64,000 bases of DNA from assembly GCA_964417755.1 (NCBI GenBank), contig CAYQJH010000002.1, positions 2,693 through 66,692 on the forward strand, read 5' to 3'. A model generated the notes under the pieces. The model did no database searches. It was not told where the DNA came from and saw only the letters and a list, made by a program, of their open reading frames with translations. The translations under genes were made by a program, and so were the position numbers. This DNA comes from an uncultured Planctomycetaceae bacterium. GTDB taxonomy: Bacteria > Planctomycetota > Phycisphaerae > SM23-33. The first letter of the stretch is position 1. Each line of letters opens with the position of its first letter. Below are positions 4,485-63,975 of this stretch, one piece after another.

Positions 4485-7214
4485 TTGGATTCTTTCACGC
4501 TGAACAAGATCGAGTTCAATGAGCTTCGCCGCATCCTGAGCGGCTATTGCAGTTGTTCATTGGGCAAAGACCTGGCCGTCCGCATCGGCCCCAGCCGCAA
4601 CCCCACTATCATCAAAAAGTGGCTGGGCCAGGTCAGCCAGATGGTCTATGCGATCCGCGACAACGGCCTGCCGCCTTTTGGCGGCGTGAGCGACATCGCC
4701 GGTCCGATGGAGCGCGCCAGGCCCGGCGGCGGGGCCATCGGCGACGATTATGCCACTATCGCCGCCTGCCTTGAGGGGGCCGACAACGTCAAGGCGTACC
4801 TCGGAAAGCTGGACGAGCAATTCGACCTGCTGCACGAATTGATATCGGGCATCGCCGACTTCAGCGAAGAACTGACAGCCATCTGGGCCATCATCGGCCC
4901 TGATGGCTTGGTTCTCGATTCCGCCTCGGTTCGCCTGGCGGAGCTTCGCTCGAGGATCCAGTCCACCGCCCGGCAGATTCACGACGTGATCTACGGCTAT
5001 CTCCGCGACAGCGAGGTTTCCCGGCTATTGCAGAACGCGACCGTCACGCTTCACGGCGACCGCTACGTGCTGCCGGTCAAGCAGGAGAACCGCGGGCGAT
5101 TGCCCGGCGTGGTGCATCGCGAGTCGAACACGGGCGCAACGGTTTTCGTCGAGCCAAACCAGTGCGTCGAGCTCAACAACCTGCTGAGCGACCTGTACGA
5201 GGACGAACGCAACGAGGTCCGCCGCCTGCTGAACACACTGGCCATCCGCATCACTGCCAAGGCCGCGGAGATCGAATCGACGCTGAGGGTTCTGGCACAG
5301 GTGGATTTGATCTCGGCCAAGGCCCAGTACGCCTATCAGAACCAGATGGTCTGCCCGGAGATCCTCGAGCGCGGAGCGCTGCAATTGGTGCAGGCTCGCC
5401 ACCCGCTGCTGATAGATCAGGCCGTCGAACAACGGCGCGCAGGCCAGGCGCCTGCACCGCAAAACAGCCAGCCGGCACGCGAGGTCGTGCCGATCGACGT
5501 CCGGCTGGGCCAGGACTTCGACCTGCTGGTGATAACCGGCTCAAACACCGGCGGCAAGACGGTTGCCCTGAAGACGGTGGCGATGCTGGTGCTCATGGCG
5601 CAGTCGGGCATGCACATCCCAGCGCAGCGGGGCTCGAGCGTGCCGGTGTTCCACGACGTGTTCATCGACATCGGCGACGAACAGTCGCTGCAGCAGTCGC
5701 TCAGCACGTTCGGGGCGCATATCAAGCGGGTGAAGTACATCCTGAGCAAGGCCGACCGCAACAGCATGGTCCTGCTGGATGAACTGGGCAGCGGCACCGA
5801 TCCCGACGAGGGTGGCGCCATCGGCCAGGCGATTTTGGACGAACTTCGCCGCATCGGCTGCCTGGGCATGGTAACCACGCACCTGAGCATACTGAAGGCC
5901 TACGCCTTCAGCAACGAGCGGGTCGATAACGCCTCGGTGGAATTCGACACCGCGACGCTAAGTCCTACTTATCATCTAACCATCGGCCGGCCCGGCGAGA
6001 GCCACGCCATCACGGTTGCCCAGAAGCTGGGCCTGCCCAAGCGAATTGTCAGCGCAGCAAGGGGGCACCTGGGCTCAGCCGGCAAGCAGTTCCGCCGGGC
6101 GATCAGCGCCACCAATGCGGTGCGGGCATCCGCGGAGGTCGCAAGGGCTGAAGCGCAGGCGGCGGCTGTCCAGGCCCGCAGCCAGCAGGAAGTATACGAG
6201 GCCAAGCTGGCTGACCTGCACCGCTTGCAGGAGGAGTTTGAGACGTGGCTGGCGAGGCTAGGGGAGATGAAGAGCGGCGAGGCGATCTTCGTGCCGTCGC
6301 TCAAGAAGACCGGCCACCTGGTGCGGCTGGAACTGCACAGGCAGATTGCGCTGGTCGATGCGGACAACGTGCAGGTGGAAGTGCCACTTTCGGAATTGAT
6401 GCCCAGCTTGGGGCAGGATGCCGTCCGCGAGCAGATCGCCTCGCTGCGCCAGCAGATCATGCAGCAGGCCAAGGCCAGCCAGGAGGCATCTGAGGCAGCC
6501 CGGCGGACGCAGGAGCAGTACCATCGCAGCCTGCAGCAGCAGAAGGAGCGGGCGCGGCAGTTCGACCACTGGCTAGGCGCGATAGCGCGGATGAAGGTGG
6601 GCGACGAGATCACGATCTCGTGCCGGCCCGGCAGGGGCACGCTCACGAAGGTGGACCTGCCCGGCCTGCGGGCCAGCGTCAAGGCAGGCCAGCAGGAGAT
6701 GGAATTGCCGCTATCGGAGCTTTTCCCGCAGACCGGGCCATTCGCCCGCCTGAGCAGCACGGGGGCTGAAGTTGCCCGTCATGACCACGGGCGGCATGGC
6801 CAGCAGCAAGTCGGCCAGCCCCGGCAGGGGCAAGGCGTCTATCGAGATCATTATCAGCGGCCGCACTCGGCTGGGGAAATGCGGCAAAGTCAAAGTGTTC
6901 AAGAAGAGCCTGTCGAAGTAGTGGACAATCGCCCGATGCATCGCCGCAGTGGCCAGTCGCGCGCCGCCCAAGACAACAAAGCAGCCCTGCTAGGCATCGA
7001 GCCCGGCCAGCAGGTCTTCGTCGTGCCGTTCAACAAGCGGGCAACGCTGATTCGCATCCTGGCTGAAAAAGGCCAAGCTATCGTGCAAAGCGGGATCTTC
7101 GAGATGCAGTTGCCGCTGGCTGATCTTGAGCCGATCCGCGAGCCGCCGCCGCAGCAGAAAAAGCACAAGCCCAGCAAGCCGCCCAAGGCTCAAGGCCAAT
7201 CGCAGGAAATCTGA
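4485..7214 (+). CDS. mutS2: Endonuclease MutS2-like ATPase, Smr-less, with three C-terminal KOW-like modules
   Basis: MutS family Walker A LVITGSNTGGKTVALKT and MutS2-type N-terminal region. TTG start. The C-terminus has three repeats of the pattern Gx(I/V)xVxxxxxxGxLxxxxxxxxAxVxxGxxExxLPLS(E/D)LxP and no recognisable Smr motifs. Confidence 0.75.
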   Translation: MDSFTLNKIEFNELRRILSGYCSCSLGKDLAVRIGPSRNPTIIKKWLGQVSQMVYAIRDNGLPPFGGVSDIAGPMERARPGGGAIGDDYATIAACLEGADNVKAYLGKLDEQFDLLHELISGIADFSEELTAIWAIIGPDGLVLDSASVRLAELRSRIQSTARQIHDVIYGYLRDSEVSRLLQNATVTLHGDRYVLPVKQENRGRLPGVVHRESNTGATVFVEPNQCVELNNLLSDLYEDERNEVRRLLNTLAIRITAKAAEIESTLRVLAQVDLISAKAQYAYQNQMVCPEILERGALQLVQARHPLLIDQAVEQRRAGQAPAPQNSQPAREVVPIDVRLGQDFDLLVITGSNTGGKTVALKTVAMLVLMAQSGMHIPAQRGSSVPVFHDVFIDIGDEQSLQQSLSTFGAHIKRVKYILSKADRNSMVLLDELGSGTDPDEGGAIGQAILDELRRIGCLGMVTTHLSILKAYAFSNERVDNASVEFDTATLSPTYHLTIGRPGESHAITVAQKLGLPKRIVSAARGHLGSAGKQFRRAISATNAVRASAEVARAEAQAAAVQARSQQEVYEAKLADLHRLQEEFETWLARLGEMKSGEAIFVPSLKKTGHLVRLELHRQIALVDADNVQVEVPLSELMPSLGQDAVREQIASLRQQIMQQAKASQEASEAARRTQEQYHRSLQQQKERARQFDHWLGAIARMKVGDEITISCRPGRGTLTKVDLPGLRASVKAGQQEMELPLSELFPQTGPFARLSSTGAEVARHDHGRHGQQQVGQPRQGQGVYRDHYQRPHSAGEMRQSQSVQEEPVEVVDNRPMHRRSGQSRAAQDNKAALLGIEPGQQVFVVPFNKRATLIRILAEKGQAIVQSGIFEMQLPLADLEPIREPPPQQKKHKPSKPPKAQGQSQEI

Positions 7215-7372
7215 GTTACGCGATTGTGAGGCACAGCCTCCCGGGCTGTGCAATGCCATGGCGGACCGACAAAAAACAGCATGCCCGAGGGCGGGCTTCG
7301 CCTGAAGATACTGACAATGCCAACAGCATGCAGGCGAGACGCCTGCACCACAAAACAGCGACCGCCGTTCGA

Positions 7373-8758
7373 TTACTTAGCTGACGGATATTGGCCAGCG
7401 TCATCGTGGCGGTGCTTGGCGCCAGCCTGCCCGGTTGCGGCGGACTTTTCCGCCGCGACGGCCTTGATCGCCCGCGCCAGCCTGGCCACGCCTTCGGATA
7501 TGTCCTTCATTCCGGCAACGCCGAACGTCAGGCGAATGCGATTCGTCGGGATCTTCCTGGCCGGGTCGGGGCCGTAGCAGAATTCGCCGGGCAGATACAG
7601 CACGCCTTCATCCAGCGCCTTCTTGAACAGATCGCTCTTTAGCCCTGTGTCGATGTGCTGCGGCAGCGTGAGGTACACGTACAGGCCGCCCATCGGGATG
7701 GTCCACTTCGTCTGGCCGGGGAAGAAATCGCCCAGGTGCTTCTTGAGGGCCTCCAGCATCGTGTGGGCCTTCTTGTGGTAATTCTTCCGCAACTTCTCGA
7801 CGTGCTTGTAGTACAGGCCCTTCTGCAAGGCCGTCAGCAGCATGTGCTGACAGAGATTGGCTGAACCGAAATCCTGGTTGCCCTTTTGGTTCAGCACCGC
7901 ATCGACCAGGTCGCCAGGCAGCAGGCCATAGCCGGTCTTGAAGCCCGGCGCGAACGGCTTGCTGAAGGTCTGGAGCAGCGCGACGTACTGGTTGTCGCGG
8001 TCGTACTTCTTTATCGACGGCGGCGTATCGCCCTCGAAGGTCAACTCGCGGTAGGCGGCATCCTCGATCAGCAGGATGCGATGGTGCCTGGAGTACTTCT
8101 TGACGATCTCCAGCATGCGCTCGCGGCGGTCGGCTGACAGCGTGATGCCGGTGGGGTTCTGGTGATAGCTGGTGACGTAGACGACCTTGACCTTGGGCAG
8201 TTGGCCGGTTCTGTCCAGCTCGGCCAGCAGGGCCTCCAGGCTGTCGGGGATGATGCCATTGTCGTCCATCTCCAGGCAGCGGATAGTCGCGCCTAGCGAC
8301 TCCAGCACGCACGTATAGACGAAGTAGCTCGGCCAGGCTGTGATGATGATATCGCCCGGGTCGATCAGCACGTCGGCCAGAATGAATAGCAACTGCTGGC
8401 TGCCGTTGGTCACGACGATGTTGTCGGGTGTGGCCTTCCAATGGCTGGTCGGTACGCCGTCCAGGCTGGCCAGGTGCTGGAGGAGCATTTGTCGCAATTG
8501 CGTCAGGCCCTCGGTCGAGCCGTATTGCAGGGCGGTCTGGGCGGACTTGGGCGTCTTGGTCAACTCGCCGACCAACTCGGCAACGTGATCCGTTGGCAGC
8601 GTCTCGTAATCGACCAGGCCGGCGGCCAGGGAAATCAGGTTGGGTTTATCCAGCACGACGCTGAGCATGTAATTGATCGGCTGCGGCCGGGAGCGCCTGG
8701 CCCGTGCCGATAGACCAAAGCCCAGAGCCTTCTGAGCACTTCCACCTTTATTATCCAT
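7373..8758 (-). CDS. PLP-dependent aminotransferase (class I/II fold)
   Basis: SYHQNPTG motif and SKPFAPGFKTGY with the candidate PLP-lysine. The true start may lie downstream of the ORF start. Confidence 0.7.
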   Translation of the reverse strand: MDNKGGSAQKALGFGLSARARRSRPQPINYMLSVVLDKPNLISLAAGLVDYETLPTDHVAELVGELTKTPKSAQTALQYGSTEGLTQLRQMLLQHLASLDGVPTSHWKATPDNIVVTNGSQQLLFILADVLIDPGDIIITAWPSYFVYTCVLESLGATIRCLEMDDNGIIPDSLEALLAELDRTGQLPKVKVVYVTSYHQNPTGITLSADRRERMLEIVKKYSRHHRILLIEDAAYRELTFEGDTPPSIKKYDRDNQYVALLQTFSKPFAPGFKTGYGLLPGDLVDAVLNQKGNQDFGSANLCQHMLLTALQKGLYYKHVEKLRKNYHKKAHTMLEALKKHLGDFFPGQTKWTIPMGGLYVYLTLPQHIDTGLKSDLFKKALDEGVLYLPGEFCYGPDPARKIPTNRIRLTFGVAGMKDISEGVARLARAIKAVAAEKSAATGQAGAKHRHDDAGQYPSAK

Positions 8759-8858
8759 ACGCTGCTGCCTTCTTTCAGTGTGGTGGCCGTCGCGATCTTA
8801 AACGCTGCGACCACTGCGCCCGCGCTTGGTACACAACCTTTCCAGGCTGTGTCGCGCC

Positions 8859-29761: not shown

Positions 29762-29782
29762 GAAGGCCCCAGGCTCTTTTGT

Positions 29783-29895
29783 GTGTCGCGGGCGTCTCGC
29801 CCGCGTGTACCGAGGGCATCCTGCCCTCGCTGCCTCCGACAATCCGCAGGCAAGACGCCTGCGGCACACGCGGGCAAGATGCCTGCGACACATGA
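29783..29895. repeat. A-family composite hairpin repeat (TGTCGCGGGCGTCTCGCCCGCG / GTACCGAGGGCATCCTGCCCTCG / CGGGCAAGATGCCCGCGACAC modules)
   Basis: Lies between pilB and pilT inside the pilus operon. More than 12 related copies across the window. Confidence 0.8.
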
Positions 29896-50021: not shown

Positions 50022-50268
50022 GTGGCGCGGGCATCCCGCCCGCGAATATCGCGGACCTCTCGTGCGCAGGTCGTTCCAGCAGGCAGTTTCGTGCTGGTAG
50101 CGAATGCCGCGGTTTGCGAAACCCGAAGGGATGAAGCCACGCTGCGGCCAAGCGTGGTTACTTCGCTTCGCTCCGTAAACCACGGCACCCCGCCTGCGGT
50201 TTGTTGTGAAGACGCGAGGGCAGGATGCCCTCGGTACGCGCGGGCAAGACGCCCGCGACACGCAAAGC
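50022..50268. repeat. A-family composite repeat (long copy, includes the CCGTGGTTTGCG module)
   Basis: GCGCGGGCATCCCGCCCGCG ... GTAAACCACGGCAC ... GAGGGCAGGATGCCCTCGGTACGCGCGGGCAAGACGCCCGCGACACG. Confidence 0.75.
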
Positions 50269-50599
50269 GGCCGCCGTTCCATCGATAACGAAGCTCAAGC
50301 GTAGAATGAATGAGGCAGGCGAATCAGGCCGATAAGAGTCTGTAAGGCTTGCCGTTAGTGAGAGCCAAATGCAAAGGCGGAATATGTTTGCCAGAAAATC
50401 GTCGTCTCGGGCATCTTCGGTTCGCCGGGCGCGAAGGCGCCCGCGAGGAGCGTCGTTCGCGCAAGCGCTATGGAGAAAGCTGCCTCGAACCGATAAAATA
50501 GAGGACTGTGGGAAAGAACCCCGCAACCCAGCAAGGTAAGGGCGGGCTGCACACGGTTAGTGCGTGGCGCCGGCCTGGCTCCAAAGAGGTGCGAGCAGA

Positions 50600-52282
50600 A
50601 TGAGACCCCGTCAAGTATCTTCATCGATGTTCATATGTCTAGCCGCATTGGCCATCACGTTGCCGGCCTACGCGCAGGTGCAGCAGTTGCAGGTCGGGCA
50701 GAGCCTGGACGCCAACTACCAGGTCGGCAGCGGAGGATACAACACGGTTACCGGCGGCGTAGGCGGGGTCAACAGCCAACTCTACGTTAACGGCCAGGTG
50801 ACGGGCCTGGGCAGCTTCCACGGCCGTCGAAACGCCGTCGCCGACCAGCTTCAAACAAATGTGCCTACTAACGGCCTTAGCACGTTTCAACAGCAATCGG
50901 TCGGCATGAACGATGCGATTAATAGAAGCACTTATCAGGCTGCTCCGTATTATTCTCCTTCGGCGTCGGTGAGCAATATCCGGTCTTCCGTGGCGTCGGG
51001 CGCAGGCGGCCTGCCGGGGGGCGGCTTTGCACCCAGCCGATACATCGAGAGTTCTGTCGGTCGGCAATTGTTCATCGATGCTACGGCGGATTATCGCCCG
51101 CTCATGTCGCCATCCGGCTCGGGGGCAACAGCCAGCCCGATGGTTTCCTCATCCGACAATGTCTATCTGCCGGCTGTTCCGACTTCGCCGCAGCGAATCG
51201 AGAACTTGCGGCCTGGCGCATCGGCCCTGTTCAACTCTCCGGTGGCGGCCAGCCGAGACGACCTTGCCCGTGAGCTGCGGGAAATTGATAGTCGGATAGA
51301 TAACCGCCTGGACGGGCTTGTCTCGGCGAAAGTGGAACAAGACGCCGATCCGAACAAGCTGACCGGCAGGAATGACTTGATCACGAGCGGCACGTTTGAA
51401 AAGGAAGCAAAGCCAAAGGACATGCAGCTTACGCGAACGCCGCCAGCCCCCATTCAGCCGGACAAGCCCGACGTGCCACCTAAGAAGGAAGTACCGGTTA
51501 TCTCCGCCAACCAGGATATCTTCGTGGACATGCTCGTCGCGCTGCGTCAGGCCAAGACAGGGCCTGGCTCGGCGGCCCCAACAGCGGCATCGCCGCTGGA
51601 ATCGCCGGCGGCTGATTTGAGGCTCGCGGGCACGGCGTCGTCGCTGAAGCGCCCTGGAGCTTGGAAAGCTCAGGAGCAGCCCGCTCTGCCCAGGCCGGAG
51701 CTTTTCACCTACGGGCCGGCGCAGGGCAAGGCCCGCGTGGAGTATGTGCAGGGCAAGGGCATAGTGATTCACGGCCTGGCAGGCCAGAGCAGCGACCTGT
51801 TCAACGGACAGATGGCCAAGGCTGAAGAAAACCTCAAGAAGGGCGAGTTTTACGATGCCGCATCGCAGTTTCACACGGCGGCTGTGCTCAGTCCGGGCAA
51901 TCCGCTGGCGTGGGTGGGGCAGGGCCTGGCGCTGTTCATGGCGCACGAGCCTTCCAGTGCCGCCTTGAGCTTCCAGCATGCAATGCAGGCATTCCCGCCG
52001 CTGATGGAGACGCGGCTGGATGTGGCGTCAATCATCGACATCGATAAGTTCAAGACGCAGTTGTCGATGCTCGACCAGCGGCTGGACAGAGAGGCCTGGG
52101 AGAATGACGCTCCGATGGCCTACCTTGCCGCCTACCTGCACTACTGCGTTGGCGAGGATGATGTCGCCAAGAACTATGCCCGCCTTCTGAAAGTCAAGGG
52201 CATCAAGGCGCCGGTGATGGAGTCCTTCGTCGAGTTCATGCTCTCAGGCAACAAGCCCGCCAGCCAGTCTGCAAAGCAATAA
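50600..52282 (+). CDS. Secreted protein with C-terminal TPR-like region
   Basis: Signal peptide ...MFICLAALAITLPAYAQ. TPR-like helices near the C-terminus. Confidence 0.55.
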   Translation: MRPRQVSSSMFICLAALAITLPAYAQVQQLQVGQSLDANYQVGSGGYNTVTGGVGGVNSQLYVNGQVTGLGSFHGRRNAVADQLQTNVPTNGLSTFQQQSVGMNDAINRSTYQAAPYYSPSASVSNIRSSVASGAGGLPGGGFAPSRYIESSVGRQLFIDATADYRPLMSPSGSGATASPMVSSSDNVYLPAVPTSPQRIENLRPGASALFNSPVAASRDDLARELREIDSRIDNRLDGLVSAKVEQDADPNKLTGRNDLITSGTFEKEAKPKDMQLTRTPPAPIQPDKPDVPPKKEVPVISANQDIFVDMLVALRQAKTGPGSAAPTAASPLESPAADLRLAGTASSLKRPGAWKAQEQPALPRPELFTYGPAQGKARVEYVQGKGIVIHGLAGQSSDLFNGQMAKAEENLKKGEFYDAASQFHTAAVLSPGNPLAWVGQGLALFMAHEPSSAALSFQHAMQAFPPLMETRLDVASIIDIDKFKTQLSMLDQRLDREAWENDAPMAYLAAYLHYCVGEDDVAKNYARLLKVKGIKAPVMESFVEFMLSGNKPASQSAKQ

Positions 52283-52518
52283 GACGTGGCACAGCCGCCC
52301 TTGGCTGAGCCGTTTACATGCTTCCGCAAACGACCCTTCGACGTACTCAGGGCAAGCAATGACACTGAAGCATGGCGCCACGCTGTGCAGTTGCCATCTT
52401 ACCGGAGGCGTTGAAGGCGCCGCCGCGGGAATGTATAACCCTCGACATGGCATCTCACGGGCAGGCCCGCCACGGCCCTGGCGAAGGCGGGCGGACATCT
52501 TCGTTGGGCAGCAGCGGC

Positions 52519-53268
52519 ATGCGTCGAACATCCGCAGCGCAGCCTGAGCGCCGAAGCTTTAACGGGGGACAGTTCGCAGCCACGCGATGGAGCGTCGTCC
52601 TGGCGGCCAATGAATGGCGGGCTGGGACGGCTGCTCGGCGGGCCATGGGCGATCTGGTGCAGACGTACTGGTTCCCGCTGTACGCCTATCTGCGCCGCCG
52701 CGGCCATGCGCCGGCACAAGCCGAAGACCTGGTCCAGGGCTTTTTCGCACAATTGCTGGAAAAGGATGCCCTGGCCCGCGTGGATCGCGAGCGAGGGAAA
52801 TTTCGCTCCTTCCTTCTGGCGTCCTTGCAGAACTTCCTGGCCAATGAGTGGGACAAGAGCCACGCCGCCAAGCGAGGCGGAGGCGCGGAAATCGTTGCAC
52901 TCGATGCCCTGGAGGCAGAGGCACGCTATGCGGCTGAGCCAGTGGACTCGATGACGGCGGAGCGGGTGTTCCAGCGGCGCTGGGCGCTGGCTGTGCTTGA
53001 GCAGGTGCTGGCGCGGCTGCGGGAGGATTACGCCGGGCGGAAGCAGGCTGAAATTTTTGCGGCGTTGGAGCATGTGCTGACGGCCGGCGACGGCGAAAGT
53101 TACGGTGCAATCGGCGCGCGATTAGGCATGACCGAGGCAGCCGTCAAGGTGGCTGCCCATCGCCTGCGCCGACGGTATCGAGAGCTTCTGCGAGAGGAAA
53201 TTGCCCAGACGGTCTCGCAGGATTCCCTGGTGGAGGATGAAATCCGTCAATTATTGGCCTGCCTGTAA
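52519..53268 (+). CDS. ECF-type RNA polymerase sigma-70 factor
   Basis: Region 2 (DLVQTYWFPLYAYLRRRGHAPAQAEDLVQGFFAQLLEK) and region 4 (GMTEAAVKVAAHRLRRRYRELL). Start inferred at ATG 52519. Confidence 0.75.
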   Translation: MRRTSAAQPERRSFNGGQFAATRWSVVLAANEWRAGTAARRAMGDLVQTYWFPLYAYLRRRGHAPAQAEDLVQGFFAQLLEKDALARVDRERGKFRSFLLASLQNFLANEWDKSHAAKRGGGAEIVALDALEAEARYAAEPVDSMTAERVFQRRWALAVLEQVLARLREDYAGRKQAEIFAALEHVLTAGDGESYGAIGARLGMTEAAVKVAAHRLRRRYRELLREEIAQTVSQDSLVEDEIRQLLACL

Positions 53269-53293
53269 CCTTTCTTTCCGTTTGCTTTTGTAA

Positions 53294-54889
<1,596 letters not shown>

Positions 54890-54898
54890 GGAACGAAC

Positions 54899-57664
54899 AT
54901 GAACGTATTGGTGATACTCCTATCGCCCTTGATCCTGATTGCAGCCTCAGCGCCCATAGGAGCGACGGTCTGCGGAGCAATGGCAATCTCGAGGATTCGC
55001 CGTTCTGGAGGCCGAATCTATGGCCTGGGCCTGGCTATCTTTGATGCACTCGTATTCCCGCTGTTGGCTTTGGACGGCTTGATTGCTTACGCCTGCATCA
55101 CGCTGGCTCGTCTCATCCATTTCAGCGCGATCGAATCAGACAATCTTGCCATCGGAATTCTGGCTGCTGTCGCCATCTCTGCCCTGGCCGACTTCTTCAT
55201 TATTCGCTGGGTGTGGCGAGCGAGCAAGCCCACGATTCACGCCAGCACTCAGCCGCCACCGCAAGCAAGCCAAAGCGGCGGCGATGCCGCCGCACTCCAA
55301 GACGCCCGCCAGGCTGTGAAGGCTCCGGCCTGGGCACTTATTATCGTGGCTGCCTCGCATGTCGGGTTCGCTATTTTTGCAAGCGTTGCAGCAATCACCT
55401 CCGTCCCGAGAATCGTGCCTACGAACTTTTCGTTTCCCTTTGTGGTGGTATTGGGATCGCTTTTCCTTGCCGGAAATCTGTTCGCACTGCATGCAGCCAG
55501 CGGAATGAAGCAACTGAAGAACCGTCAGGCAGCCGTGGCTGCTTGCGTAATAGTCATGCTCCCGTTTTCTGTCTTTGGCCTTATTGCTGGCATTTGGGCG
55601 CTGGTGGTCCTCAGCCGGCGGGAGGTCGTGGAGGCATTCAAGATATCTGAAAGGGGTAAGACTGTGAGTAAATCAAGGACTTTCATGTGGCTGCTGTTGG
55701 GTGTTGTCGCGATCCTAACGCCCGTGGCGCTTTGGGCGGCATCAAATACCGGGCCAGCATCCTCGCAACTGCAATCGCAAGCGAGCAGCCAATTTCCCAG
55801 CGCAGCGCATTCTGGCAATGACAAACGTTCTGCGTATGTTGTGCATGCTGGAGGAGAGGTTCATTATGTGTTCTTCTATCCAGGGCGCTTTACCTCAAAC
55901 ACCAGTGGATCGCAGAATGCCCATTCTCTGACATGGATAGATAATGGTTCTGTCAAGCTGACAAATGGGCAAACCTTCGGCTTCCTCCGAGAATCCGCAG
56001 ACCCGCTACACCTGAGCGTCAACGGAAAGGAGTATGACCTGCGGCAAGGGCGGGTACTCGTGTTGCGGGATGATGGCTCTGCCCAGCAGGTGAAGTTGTT
56101 CCCAACGTTGGCCGTGGCGCGAGATGCTGGCACATTGGCCAAGGCTGTTGACTCGGCTACGGTCACTGCACGGCCTGTTTTTGGGGCAGTGGTCGAGCGG
56201 ACGATTAACGACCTCGACGAAGGTAAAGGCAGCGAGGGGTTGAAACTAGCCACAGGTGAGGTAGTGAGCCTGCCGGCGGAGTTCGAGCGCATGTCCAATC
56301 AACAGCGTTCGAAGTGGATTGAAGACCAAGGCATCGACCTGTTCGTCGAGTACGTATCGGACCGCAACACATATGTATCGAACCGTTGGGCGCTCATGTC
56401 GTGCGGTCTTCGGTTGAGCACGCTTAATGCGACATTTGAGGCAGCGTCGCCCGAGGATGCGCAGGCATCTCTTGCTTCGACTGCCGCGTCGGGTCTCGAT
56501 GTGCTTGAGCGTAATGGCCTAAAGTTCTACCTGATGCCTAGGCTCTCCATGCCGCCGTTAGTATTCGCTTTCCAGACGCGCGAGGGTGGCGTTGGTTTGC
56601 TGGAGGTCACCAGCTATACGAACAATCCTAAGGGGATGAAGATTCGCTACAAGATGCTGCCGGGTGCCGTGGCCGCGGAGTCTGCGGCCACGCAGCCAGC
56701 CACGCAGGCCGTTACTGATCTTGCACTGAAAGTCCTTCGGGCCATGAAAGAAGAAGACTTCGATACGCTCAAGAGCCTTTCGGCGGGATCGGAACAGGGC
56801 TGGCTGGAAGTCGACTTGCGAACGGCAACCAGATATTCGGGTGTTGCAGGCGAGCTGCCGGTCGGCTGGAGCCAGAACAAGCTCAGGAATGCCATTCGCG
56901 AGATTCGCACGGATGTCTTCTCAAAACATCCTGAAGCGTCTACGAAGGTGCTCGATACGATGATTCATGGTGATTGGGCGGCCGCGCTGTCTCCGGTCAC
57001 CTCATCGCAGTACCTGGTCATGGTCTTCGTTCGAACGGCAGGCGGATGGCGATTTGCCACGCTCGACGACTCAAAAGGAAGACTCGCCGATGACGTGGCC
57101 AAGCACAGCGAGAACATCCCGAAGAATCTCAAGCTTCTGCGGAGCCTATCCTCCGCTGCCTCAACTCGGTCTGTGTCCCAATCGACGAACGGGTCGGTTA
57201 TAGACGTTCAGGCAACAGCCGGAGCGTTCCTCGTGGCGCTTCGCAATAAAGATGTGGATGGGATGAAGGCTCTCTCGCTTGGCTCGGTTCGCGGTTGGGT
57301 CAGCGACGAGCAGAGCCGTCAGCCTGGAATTGGGCAGCTGGCCGGCATGAGTGTCCGCTGGTTGGGGAAGGTGATCCGCGAGATGCACGAGAAGGTCTAC
57401 AAAGCCGACCTCGACCTGATGACGAAGATCCATGAAACCGCCGTCGATGGCGATTGGGCAGCCGTCAGGATAGACATGCCTATGCCAACAGTAACCACCG
57501 GTCCCACGGACTACCTAGTCCTCTTCTTCCTCAGGACTTCAGACGGCTGGCGCTTCGTCACCATTGATGACGCCGAGGGCCCGCTGGCTGAGGGACTTGC
57601 TGCCCGAGCGCCTCGTCTACAGGGACTCCTGGCTTCGCCGTCCAGCCAACCCGCGACGCACTAA
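54899..57664 (+). CDS. Membrane protein (921 aa) with N-terminal TM bundle and two tandem ~140-aa duplicated domains
   Basis: 9 nt after the kinase stop. Two C-terminal modules align with each other (...YLV(M/L)(V/F)F(V/L)RT(A/S)(G/D)GWRF(A/V)T(L/I)DD...). Confidence 0.6.
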   Translation: MNVLVILLSPLILIAASAPIGATVCGAMAISRIRRSGGRIYGLGLAIFDALVFPLLALDGLIAYACITLARLIHFSAIESDNLAIGILAAVAISALADFFIIRWVWRASKPTIHASTQPPPQASQSGGDAAALQDARQAVKAPAWALIIVAASHVGFAIFASVAAITSVPRIVPTNFSFPFVVVLGSLFLAGNLFALHAASGMKQLKNRQAAVAACVIVMLPFSVFGLIAGIWALVVLSRREVVEAFKISERGKTVSKSRTFMWLLLGVVAILTPVALWAASNTGPASSQLQSQASSQFPSAAHSGNDKRSAYVVHAGGEVHYVFFYPGRFTSNTSGSQNAHSLTWIDNGSVKLTNGQTFGFLRESADPLHLSVNGKEYDLRQGRVLVLRDDGSAQQVKLFPTLAVARDAGTLAKAVDSATVTARPVFGAVVERTINDLDEGKGSEGLKLATGEVVSLPAEFERMSNQQRSKWIEDQGIDLFVEYVSDRNTYVSNRWALMSCGLRLSTLNATFEAASPEDAQASLASTAASGLDVLERNGLKFYLMPRLSMPPLVFAFQTREGGVGLLEVTSYTNNPKGMKIRYKMLPGAVAAESAATQPATQAVTDLALKVLRAMKEEDFDTLKSLSAGSEQGWLEVDLRTATRYSGVAGELPVGWSQNKLRNAIREIRTDVFSKHPEASTKVLDTMIHGDWAAALSPVTSSQYLVMVFVRTAGGWRFATLDDSKGRLADDVAKHSENIPKNLKLLRSLSSAASTRSVSQSTNGSVIDVQATAGAFLVALRNKDVDGMKALSLGSVRGWVSDEQSRQPGIGQLAGMSVRWLGKVIREMHEKVYKADLDLMTKIHETAVDGDWAAVRIDMPMPTVTTGPTDYLVLFFLRTSDGWRFVTIDDAEGPLAEGLAARAPRLQGLLASPSSQPATH

Positions 57665-57702: not shown

Positions 57703-57862
57703 GCAGTTTTGTGGTGCAGGCGTCTCGCCATCGTGTACCGAGGGCATTGCTACTGTGCGAAGTAGCTTCGCTACGTAGCACGAGCTTGCTCTCGCGATTT
57801 ACGAGCAGAACCGCAGGCGAGACGCCTGCGACACACGCGGGCAAGATGCCCGCGACACATAA
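57703..57862. repeat. A-family composite repeat
   Basis: GTGGTGCAGGCGTCTCGCC...GCTACGTAGCACGAGC...GCAGGCGAGACGCCTGCGACACACGCGGGCAAGATGCCCGCGACAC. Confidence 0.8.
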
Positions 57863-57895
57863 CTGCGGCGTGCTGCTGGCGAAGCTCGCGGTGCT

Positions 57896-61470: not shown

Positions 61471-61545
61471 CAGACGTCTGGCCTGCGTATACGAGGGCAG
61501 GATGCCCTCGGTACACGCGGGCGAGACGCCCGCGACACATAAAAC
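61471..61545. repeat. A-family repeat
   Basis: CGTATACGAGGGCAGGATGCCCTCGGTACACGCGGGCGAGACGCCCGCGACAC. Confidence 0.8.
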
Positions 61546-63893: not shown

Positions 63894-63928
63894 TACACGC
63901 CTCGATCCTTCCTGAGTCATTCTAGCGT

Positions 63929-63975
63929 GGCACGGACATCCTGTCCGTGCGTCTCATGGGCGTCTCGCCCATGTT
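63929..63975. repeat. A-family hairpin pair
   Basis: GGCACGGACATCCTGTCCGTGC + GTCTCATGGGCGTCTCGCCCATG. Confidence 0.6.

Follow-up and report, generated by a model that had tools for sequence, protein, structure and literature searches.

An ECF-type sigma factor beside a probable receptor kinase divided between two genes in an uncultured planctomycete

Why would a sigma factor and a kinase that form a pair be accompanied by a third gene? The question is raised by a locus in a 64,000-nucleotide stretch of DNA from an uncultured Planctomycetaceae bacterium (GenBank assembly GCA_964417755.1, contig CAYQJH010000002.1, positions 2,693 to 66,692 of the forward strand), hereafter the window, in which three open reading frames (ORFs) on the plus strand follow closely upon one another: a sigma factor of the extracytoplasmic function (ECF) type, a Hanks-type Ser/Thr kinase and a 921-aa membrane protein. 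An original prediction, made by reading the sequence, had placed the three genes 25 nt and 9 nt apart, as the ORF coordinates bear out, and had taken them for an uncharacterised transmembrane signalling module consisting of a sensor membrane protein, a kinase and a sigma factor. The layout, in window coordinates, is as follows.

52519..53268, plus strand: ECF-type sigma factor gene, 249 aa (Sigma70_r2, TIGR02937, neighbouring orthologues)
53269..53293, no strand: spacer between sigma factor and kinase genes, 25 nt
53294..54889, plus strand: membrane-anchored Hanks-type Ser/Thr kinase gene, 531 aa (Pkinase match, motifs)
54887..54901, plus strand: proposed fission junction, TGA-GGAACGAAC-ATG, with an in-frame 9-nt spacer; the stop overlaps a Shine-Dalgarno (SD)-like GAGGA
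54899..57664, plus strand: gene for the proposed detached sensor subunit, 921 aa (homologues mostly fused to a kinase)

The answer lies in the relatives of the third protein, the exact sequence of which is found in NCBI-derived data (P0001). Twelve of 20 homologues are single chains of 1177-1577 aa that have a zinc ribbon and a kinase domain at the N-terminus and that carry, behind the kinase and in colinear order, transmembrane (TM) segments and one or more of the modules X, Y and S described below. In a metagenome scan, kinase and sensor were fused at 19 of the 25 classifiable loci, and 15 of these 19 had a sigma factor of the same family next to them. (A scan of reference genomes with the third protein alone gave no relatives, which reflects a limit of the exact-peptide-pattern method.) Because its homologues are mostly single-chain kinases with the same modules, a Rosetta-stone type of fusion, the third gene is to be regarded, on homology, as the C-terminal sensor half of a normally single-chain receptor kinase and not as an independent partner family. 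If the third gene is the split-off sensor half, the module in turn becomes an ordinary two-part design of sigma factor and receptor kinase, here spread over three genes. Of the original prediction, the functional linkage of the three genes stands, including the co-occurrence of the third with kinase-sigma pairs, whereas its standing as a separate partner family does not; the sigma-kinase pairing itself is widespread. On the whole, the locus probably encodes a split receptor kinase and its cognate sigma factor as one transmembrane signalling pathway, two functional parts in three genes.

Where was the chain divided? In four contigs, the window, L001, L002 and L094 (the latter three from different samples than the window, with protein identities of 51-64%), the chain is interrupted at one and the same position, the loop on the outer side of a hairpin of the form RLSR-TM/TM-IRRSGG. 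The fused proteins P0005 and P0006 have the helices that flank the break in one chain, joined by a loop of ~25-40 aa (PRLSR-TM-loop-TM-IRRSGG), which places the fission within the outer loop of a conserved hairpin. In the window, the kinase stop and the ATG of the third ORF share a frame (...LSLIA, stop, GTNMNVLV...). The upstream ORF of L001 ends in ...LLMVIA-TGA, and MNIFVILLSPLILIAAAAPVGATVCG... begins after a 10-nt spacer (junction TGAGGAATCGGCCATG); that of L002 ends in ...RMSRLAIIAAIWAAIGLYGLLALA-TGA, and MPFQSVLPSPLSLAVLSAPIGATVCG... likewise begins after a 10-nt spacer (junction TGAGGGATAACGCATG). Both are out of frame. L094, a contig of 167 kb, has all three genes: a 247-aa sigma factor that is 56% identical to that of the window, a 1145-aa kinase with a clearly orthologous core and the C-terminal end ...RYSRLAIFGAIWAALGLLGLLLLATA, and, 533 nt after the kinase, a 270-aa membrane protein, to which the N-terminal TM region of the third protein is 64% identical. 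The TM units are placed differently in the two contigs, the 'QAVK...GIWALVVLSRREV' hairpin units lying in the kinase gene of L094 (5388-8825) and in the third gene of the window (54899-55750). Despite this difference in placement, the gene break is at the RLSR/IRRSGG hairpin in L094 and the window alike.

Could the stop codon be an accident? A recent pseudogene, a TGA introduced by assembly or sequencing error, or read-through of the TGA to yield a 1455-aa protein would each agree with the in-frame position of stop and downstream ATG in the window, where three sense codons lie between them, and with the single-chain state of most relatives. However, the same boundary occurs in the other three contigs at the identities given above, twice with 10-nt out-of-frame spacers and once with the 533-nt spacer, and both halves are intact and conserved, with an SD-like GAGG before each ATG. 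The out-of-frame 10-nt spacers rule out sequencing error, a nonsense mutation of recent date and read-through as a conserved feature, and together with the conserved boundary they largely refute these readings, which must be considered very improbable. Since the spacers differ in length and frame, comparison of the contigs identifies the break as a conserved gene fission and not a nonsense mutation. In all three short-spacer cases (the window, L001 and L002) the junction has the form TGAGG(A/G)A...ATG; the overlap of the stop with the SD-like GAGG, at a spacing of 9-10 nt from the ATG, suggests that translation of the kinase and the sensor may be coupled.

What does the detached half consist of? 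The protein is 921 aa long and has an N-terminal multi-TM region, as had been predicted, with ~8 TM segments within aa 1-284. Behind this region follow the modules listed here.

54899..55750, plus strand: polytopic membrane region (aa 1-284), headed by the TM-IRRSGG part of the split hairpin (hydropathy)
55778..56158, plus strand: predicted periplasmic module X (aa ~294-420), all-beta (AlphaFold2 model, predicted local distance difference test score mostly > 95)
56165..56710, plus strand: predicted periplasmic module Y (aa ~423-604), alpha/beta
56711..57193, plus strand: NTF2-like domain, copy 1 (aa 605-765)
57194..57661, plus strand: NTF2-like domain, copy 2 (aa 766-921)

The last ~320 aa are a tandem duplication, the copies of which are 37% identical (E 7e-25) and have the alpha+beta cone fold of the NTF2-like/SnoaL superfamily; the earlier call of two tandem NTF2-like domains was correct. 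The scores of the duplicated domain fall below the Pfam gathering thresholds (21.6 versus 27 bits for SnoaL_2 and 14.6 versus 22 for SnoaL_3). A HMMER search with aa 290-921 gave 958 representative clusters, and three independently shuffled modules were resolved, X, Y and the duplicated unit, S. No Pfam family matched X or Y, and none recurred when all 39 members of the X/Y alignment were scanned permissively; the X/Y profile found only weak matches like leucine-rich repeats (LRRs) among PDB sequences, which were regarded as chance, and Foldseek, run with the X/Y model on the PDB, returned nothing at E <= 0.001. (The start of module Y, window 56165-56300, '...aLdL.tGel.slP.ef...', weakly resembles an LRR unit (4u06, 6lx0; E 0.004-0.8), a likeness that is probably due to chance.) In both membrane proteins the numbers of Lys and Arg per loop fit a positive-inside pattern. 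From these loop charges, the kinase is predicted to have its N-terminus in the cytoplasm and its C-terminus outside, and the third protein to have both termini outside, with the Arg/Lys-rich loops at aa 28-41, 104-142, 201-211 and 242-261 inside and aa 285-921 in the periplasm.

Might such a protein work without the kinase, as a stand-alone membrane sensor or in some transport-related role, its position being a mere remnant of the fission? Its modules are not tied to kinases, as a kinase domain is present in 82 of the 165 retrieved carriers of X, Y or S (X itself occurs in 92 of the retrieved proteins), the others including a BlaR1/M56 peptidase (P0070) and TPR and SLBB proteins, and the counterpart in L094 stands 533 nt away with a different periplasmic part. 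On the other hand, the N-terminal helix, which in fused proteins pairs with the last helix of the kinase, is where the protein is best conserved (64% identity to L094, with an invariant APxGATxCG...IRRSGG), there is no cytoplasmic output domain, the longest cytoplasmic loop being 39 aa, and the tight junction of 9-10 nt is kept in three contigs. Independence from the kinase is thus quite unlikely, and the protein is treated below as the sensor half of a split receptor.

The catalytic half has the following parts.

53342..53401, plus strand: N-terminal C4 zinc ribbon, C17-x2-C20-x12-C33-x2-C36 (read from the sequence)
53546..54310, plus strand: kinase catalytic domain, aa 85-339 (Pkinase match, alignment)
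54048..54163, no strand: cluster of repetitive extragenic palindromic (REP)-like repeats that lies between DFG and APE in the activation loop (aa ~252-290) and keeps the reading frame; three strict units and one degenerate unit
54581..54886, plus strand: three TM helices, aa ~430-452, 458-482 and 511-531 (hydropathy, junction alignment, loop charges)

It is a Hanks-type kinase by its match to Pkinase (E 1.4e-49, 169.3 bits) and by its motifs, all five of which are located and intact: the P-loop GRGGMGAV(90), the VAIK-type lysine in VALK(109), HRDIKPEN(223), DFG(243) and APE(299). The N-terminal C4 ribbon and the C-terminal TM helices that had been proposed are both present, and the last helix (aa 511-531) is the RLSR-TM half of the split hairpin. 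The CxxC...CxxC ribbon is a regular companion of such kinases, being found in 67 of 69 sigma-linked kinases at the reference-genome loci described below and in 54 of the 61 N-terminally complete kinase carriers of modules X, Y or S.

The REP-like unit in the activation loop is a 22-nt hairpin (consensus GCGGGCRAGAYGCCCGCGMCAC) present in 19 copies in the window, compared to 0-4 in shuffled sequences. Eleven of the 19 units lie between long ORFs; the positions are 29781-29869, 43927, 50022-50268, 54048-54163, 57711-57865, 61517-61538 and 63927-63947. Repeat families D1/D2 of the activation loop share 80-83% identity with the intergenic copy at 50022-50268, and the loop peptide matches the intergenic cluster at ~29.8 kb by tblastn; the activation loops of related kinases have different sequences. 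The beta4-beta5 loop and the activation loop are also where the L094 kinase (5388-8825) carries insertions, which are longer and divide its Pkinase match into three stretches. Its insertion peptides include HHAGETPASRG and GILPACPEGVPPSAG, and the neighbouring radical-SAM (lipoyl-synthase-like) ORF of L094 (3383-4477) contains ...RHRRDARETHGQDARATHNAGETPASRERK.... That both this ORF and the kinase carry such peptides suggests that repeats of this kind may have invaded coding regions repeatedly in the lineage. The in-frame palindromic elements of Rickettsia offer a parallel.

What kind of sigma factor does the pathway serve? Two short motifs stand out in the family alignment.

52573..52599, plus strand: N-terminal motif F-x-x-T-R-W-S-V-V (sigma factor aa 19-27)
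52717..52737, plus strand: sigma2.2 core-binding motif Q-A-E-D-L-V-Q (aa 67-73)

The family models find sigma2 and sigma4 domains only, as in ECF (group 4) sigma factors, with 27.2 bits for Sigma70_r2 (cut-off 24) and 45.6 bits for TIGR02937, sigma70-ECF (cut-off 42.9); region 4 (r4_2) is detectable below threshold at 18.1 bits. None of the NCBIfam subfamily models matched specifically, and the score against TIGR02989, the Rhodopirellula/Verrucomicrobium sigma family, was 18.2 bits, below the cut-off of 124.55. The protein departs from the ECF hallmark of a sigma2-sigma4 linker of < 50 aa (PMC8103513), as r2 is matched up to aa 111 and r4_2 from ~aa 189 on. This ~75-aa linker, including a KRGGG motif, is conserved across the family, and at 249 aa the protein is atypically long for an ECF sigma factor. 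Orthologues found beside kinases are 58% (L007), 45% (L005) and 56% (L094) identical. The start at 52519 agrees with the N-termini of homologues. The ORF could be extended upstream by 49 codons to an ATG at 52372 (298 aa), and since an exact look-up found neither the 249-aa nor the 298-aa product in the protein collection, the deposited annotation presumably uses another start.

Within the alignment of 90 family members, position 22 is Ser or Thr in 99% and position 25 in 98%. The near-invariant Ser/Thr positions of the window protein are Thr22 and Ser25, which belong to the family motif F-x-T-T-x-W-S-x-V, and Thr231; all three are candidate sites, with Thr22 and Ser25 the best candidates for phospho-acceptor or docking residues. 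The sigma2.2 motif of the family is D-A-x-D-L-T-Q, with Asp at position 67 in 73% of the sequences (an acidic residue in 84%) and D70 in 100%. The window sigma factor reads QAEDLVQ, retaining E69 and D70, and there is no Ser or Thr within aa 63-73.

How general is the pairing? Sigma-kinase pairs were stated at the outset to be established in Planctomycetota and relatives, and kinase-linked ECF groups without anti-sigma factors are indeed described in the literature (PMC7826278, PMC8999054, PMC13147305). When species-representative genomes of GTDB were scanned with the sigma alignment, 600 candidate matches were listed, and at least 138 sigma relatives were confirmed among the matches listed. 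Eighty reference-genome loci were fetched, most of them labelled as metagenome-assembled genomes of Verrucomicrobiota, Planctomycetota or Lentisphaerae. At these loci a kinase lies directly downstream of 65 sigma copies, and 11 further loci have one on the same strand no more than a few kb off, in some cases with the kinase preceding the sigma gene; nine loci have no kinase near the sigma gene, three of them on short contigs. The proposed check on gene-neighbourhood conservation therefore came out clearly, sigma-kinase adjacency being strongly conserved at reference-genome and metagenome loci, and by these comparisons the sigma family is widespread in bacteria of the Planctomycetota-Verrucomicrobiota-Chlamydiota (PVC) group, usually adjoining a zinc-ribbon kinase. 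The sigma-linked kinases range from ~490 to 1556 aa in length, which indicates highly variable sensor regions.

Two or three tandem sigma-kinase pairs of the same family occur in L011 (10001-20691), L017, L025, L028 and L012, indicating local expansion of paralogues; no second sigma-kinase pair was found inside the 64-kb window. The kinase-then-sigma order is seen at a minority of loci: L003 (10598-11467), L029, L047, L053, L077, L084, L098-L100, L106 and L109. (The gene upstream of the fused kinase P0006, in L003, was considered as a sigma factor and rejected; the L003 sigma gene is downstream.) Upstream of the window sigma gene lies a plus-strand gene (50564-52282) for a 572-aa protein with a signal-peptide-like N-terminus and weak TPR matches only. 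The L094 cluster has the radical-SAM gene in the corresponding place, and because the 572-aa gene is not conserved there, it probably lies outside the module.

How might a signal reach the sigma factor? The sole demonstrated kinase-sigma mechanism is that of ECF43, and the mechanism of other groups may differ (PMC8999054). In the ECF43 pairs EcfP-PknT of Vibrio parahaemolyticus and EcfK-PknS of Xanthomonas citri, the sigma factor has been shown to be phosphorylated directly: the DAED motif of sigma2.2 is replaced by an uncharged QTTA or STTA, and phosphorylation of Thr restores the charge for binding of core RNA polymerase (PMC13147305, PMC8999054). The window resembles these systems in co-encoding a Hanks-type kinase (25 nt downstream of the sigma gene, an adjacency that is conserved), and ECF43 serves as the working model for the locus. 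It differs in that its sigma factor keeps the acidic QAEDLVQ, with no phospho-acceptor Thr; because the acidic motif is retained, it is by this measure not of the ECF43 type. Neither the zinc ribbon nor sensor modules of the X, Y or S type are mentioned in the two ECF43 papers (PMC13147305, PMC8999054).

On the split-receptor reading, the receptor has two subunits. The catalytic one would combine three TM helices with a Hanks kinase domain and a zinc ribbon in the cytoplasm, and the sensor one would place ~640 aa in the periplasm (X, Y and two NTF2-like domains) behind its ~8 TM segments. Production of the two would probably be coupled, and they would most likely be reunited in the membrane as the helices of the split hairpin pack together. 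A periplasmic signal would be bound by the X, Y and NTF2-like modules and passed through the TM bundle to the kinase. The kinase would then autophosphorylate and either phosphorylate the sigma factor or free it in some other way, after which the sigma factor would direct transcription of its regulon. Phosphorylation of the sigma factor is suggested by analogy to ECF43, although the site could not be the ECF43-type Thr in sigma2.2, as that region of the window protein has no Ser or Thr.

Alternatively, the kinase might act as a tether, its ribbon docking the sigma factor at the membrane in the manner of an anti-sigma factor and autophosphorylation releasing it, so that the sigma factor would never be a substrate. 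The near-universal presence of the ribbon in sigma-linked kinases (67/69 and 54/61) agrees with such a role, as does the acidic sigma2.2 motif, with which the sigma factor should be intrinsically competent for core RNA polymerase, and there is no separate anti-sigma gene at the locus. However, the ribbon is CxxC-x12-CxxC and not the HxxxCxxC in a four-helix domain that marks Class I, zinc-binding anti-sigma (ZAS) factors, no anti-sigma family was matched in the Pfam and NCBIfam scans of the locus proteins, and the conserved Thr22, Ser25 and Thr231 are equally compatible with phosphorylation. Tethering thus seems unlikely. A more far-reaching suggestion, tentative and on balance doubtful, is that the family represents a second mode of kinase control over sigma factors, in which the acidic motif is kept and the near-invariant N-terminal F-x-T-T-x-W-S is recognised or phosphorylated via the zinc ribbon, combined with a two-subunit receptor joined by a split TM hairpin and possibly with exchangeable sensors.

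Several observations weigh against the split receptor kinase and its pathway as proposed here. The third gene of L094 is 533 nt away from the kinase, and its periplasmic part is short and different. No split kinase was seen among the 80 reference-genome loci, on which count the fission is rare and confined to a small clade. The 39-aa repeat-derived insertion in the activation loop could impair the kinase. With E69 and D70 kept and no Ser or Thr in sigma2.2, the charge-restoration mechanism of ECF43 is inapplicable, and the sequences upstream of the 86 sigma genes searched yield no conserved ECF-type promoter motif, neither a -35/-10 dyad nor a 6-mer exceeding shuffled controls.

Why does such a locus matter? 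Few signalling systems of Planctomycetota and Verrucomicrobiota have expanded as much as the kinase-linked ECF sigma factors, and ECF43 is the one group for which a mechanism has been demonstrated. The locus belongs to the much larger set with an acidic sigma2.2, the mechanism of which reviews call open (PMC8999054). The near-invariant N-terminal Thr/Ser motif of the sigma factor and the zinc ribbon that marks cognate kinases provide handles on that mechanism, and the natural split of the receptor indicates where catalytic and sensor halves are separable, which could be used for reconstitution. Modules X and Y are widespread (958 representative clusters together with the NTF2 module) and have confident structure models but no Pfam family. 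That REP-like repeats have entered a kinase activation loop in frame also deserves to be flagged. None of these features is unique to the window.

How, then, does the locus compare with known systems? The kinase-linked ECF groups of Planctomycetota were reportedly first designated ECFSTK groups, by Jogler et al. in 2012. The kinase-associated groups without anti-sigma factors are now ECF43, ECF59-62, ECF217, ECF267 and ECF283 (PMC7826278, Casas-Pastor et al. 2021). By its features, not by group models, the locus resembles ECF59, ECF61, ECF62 and ECF217, with an ECF-type sigma factor beside a Hanks-type kinase, no anti-sigma gene and an origin in PVC bacteria, and its sigma factor retains the DAED-like acidic sigma2.2 motif of the kinase-linked groups other than ECF43 (PMC8999054). 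It differs from those four groups in its long sigma factor (249 aa) with a conserved N-terminal F-x-T-T-x-W-S and a conserved linker of ~75 aa, and in having the sensor half of the kinase as a separate gene.

Among periplasmic domains, the NTF2-like/SnoaL superfamily includes the extracellular NTF2 domain of the anti-sigma-I factor RsgI9 (PDB 7sjy), whereas the window has two such domains in tandem, linked through a long helix and tied to a kinase system instead of an anti-sigma factor. The HmuY-family haem-binding lipoproteins of Bacteroidota (PDB 3h8t, 6r2h, 6eu8, 8b6a) show 11-14% identity, with no significant Foldseek match in the PDB, and among the X/Y alignment members Pfam HmuY appeared in none beyond a single one at E 0.15. 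The single-chain kinases of Verrucomicrobiota and Planctomycetota (P0005-P0013, L005, L007, L097-L112) have in common with the window the zinc ribbon, a kinase core of up to 72% identity, the RLSR/IRRSGG hairpin units, the X, Y and S periplasmic modules and the same sigma neighbour. They form one polypeptide, whereas the hairpin loop marks the split in the window, L001, L002 and L094. Rather than a system of a new kind, the locus is a lineage-specific variant of a sigma-kinase pairing of Planctomycetota and Verrucomicrobiota, one that is known and occurs very commonly there.

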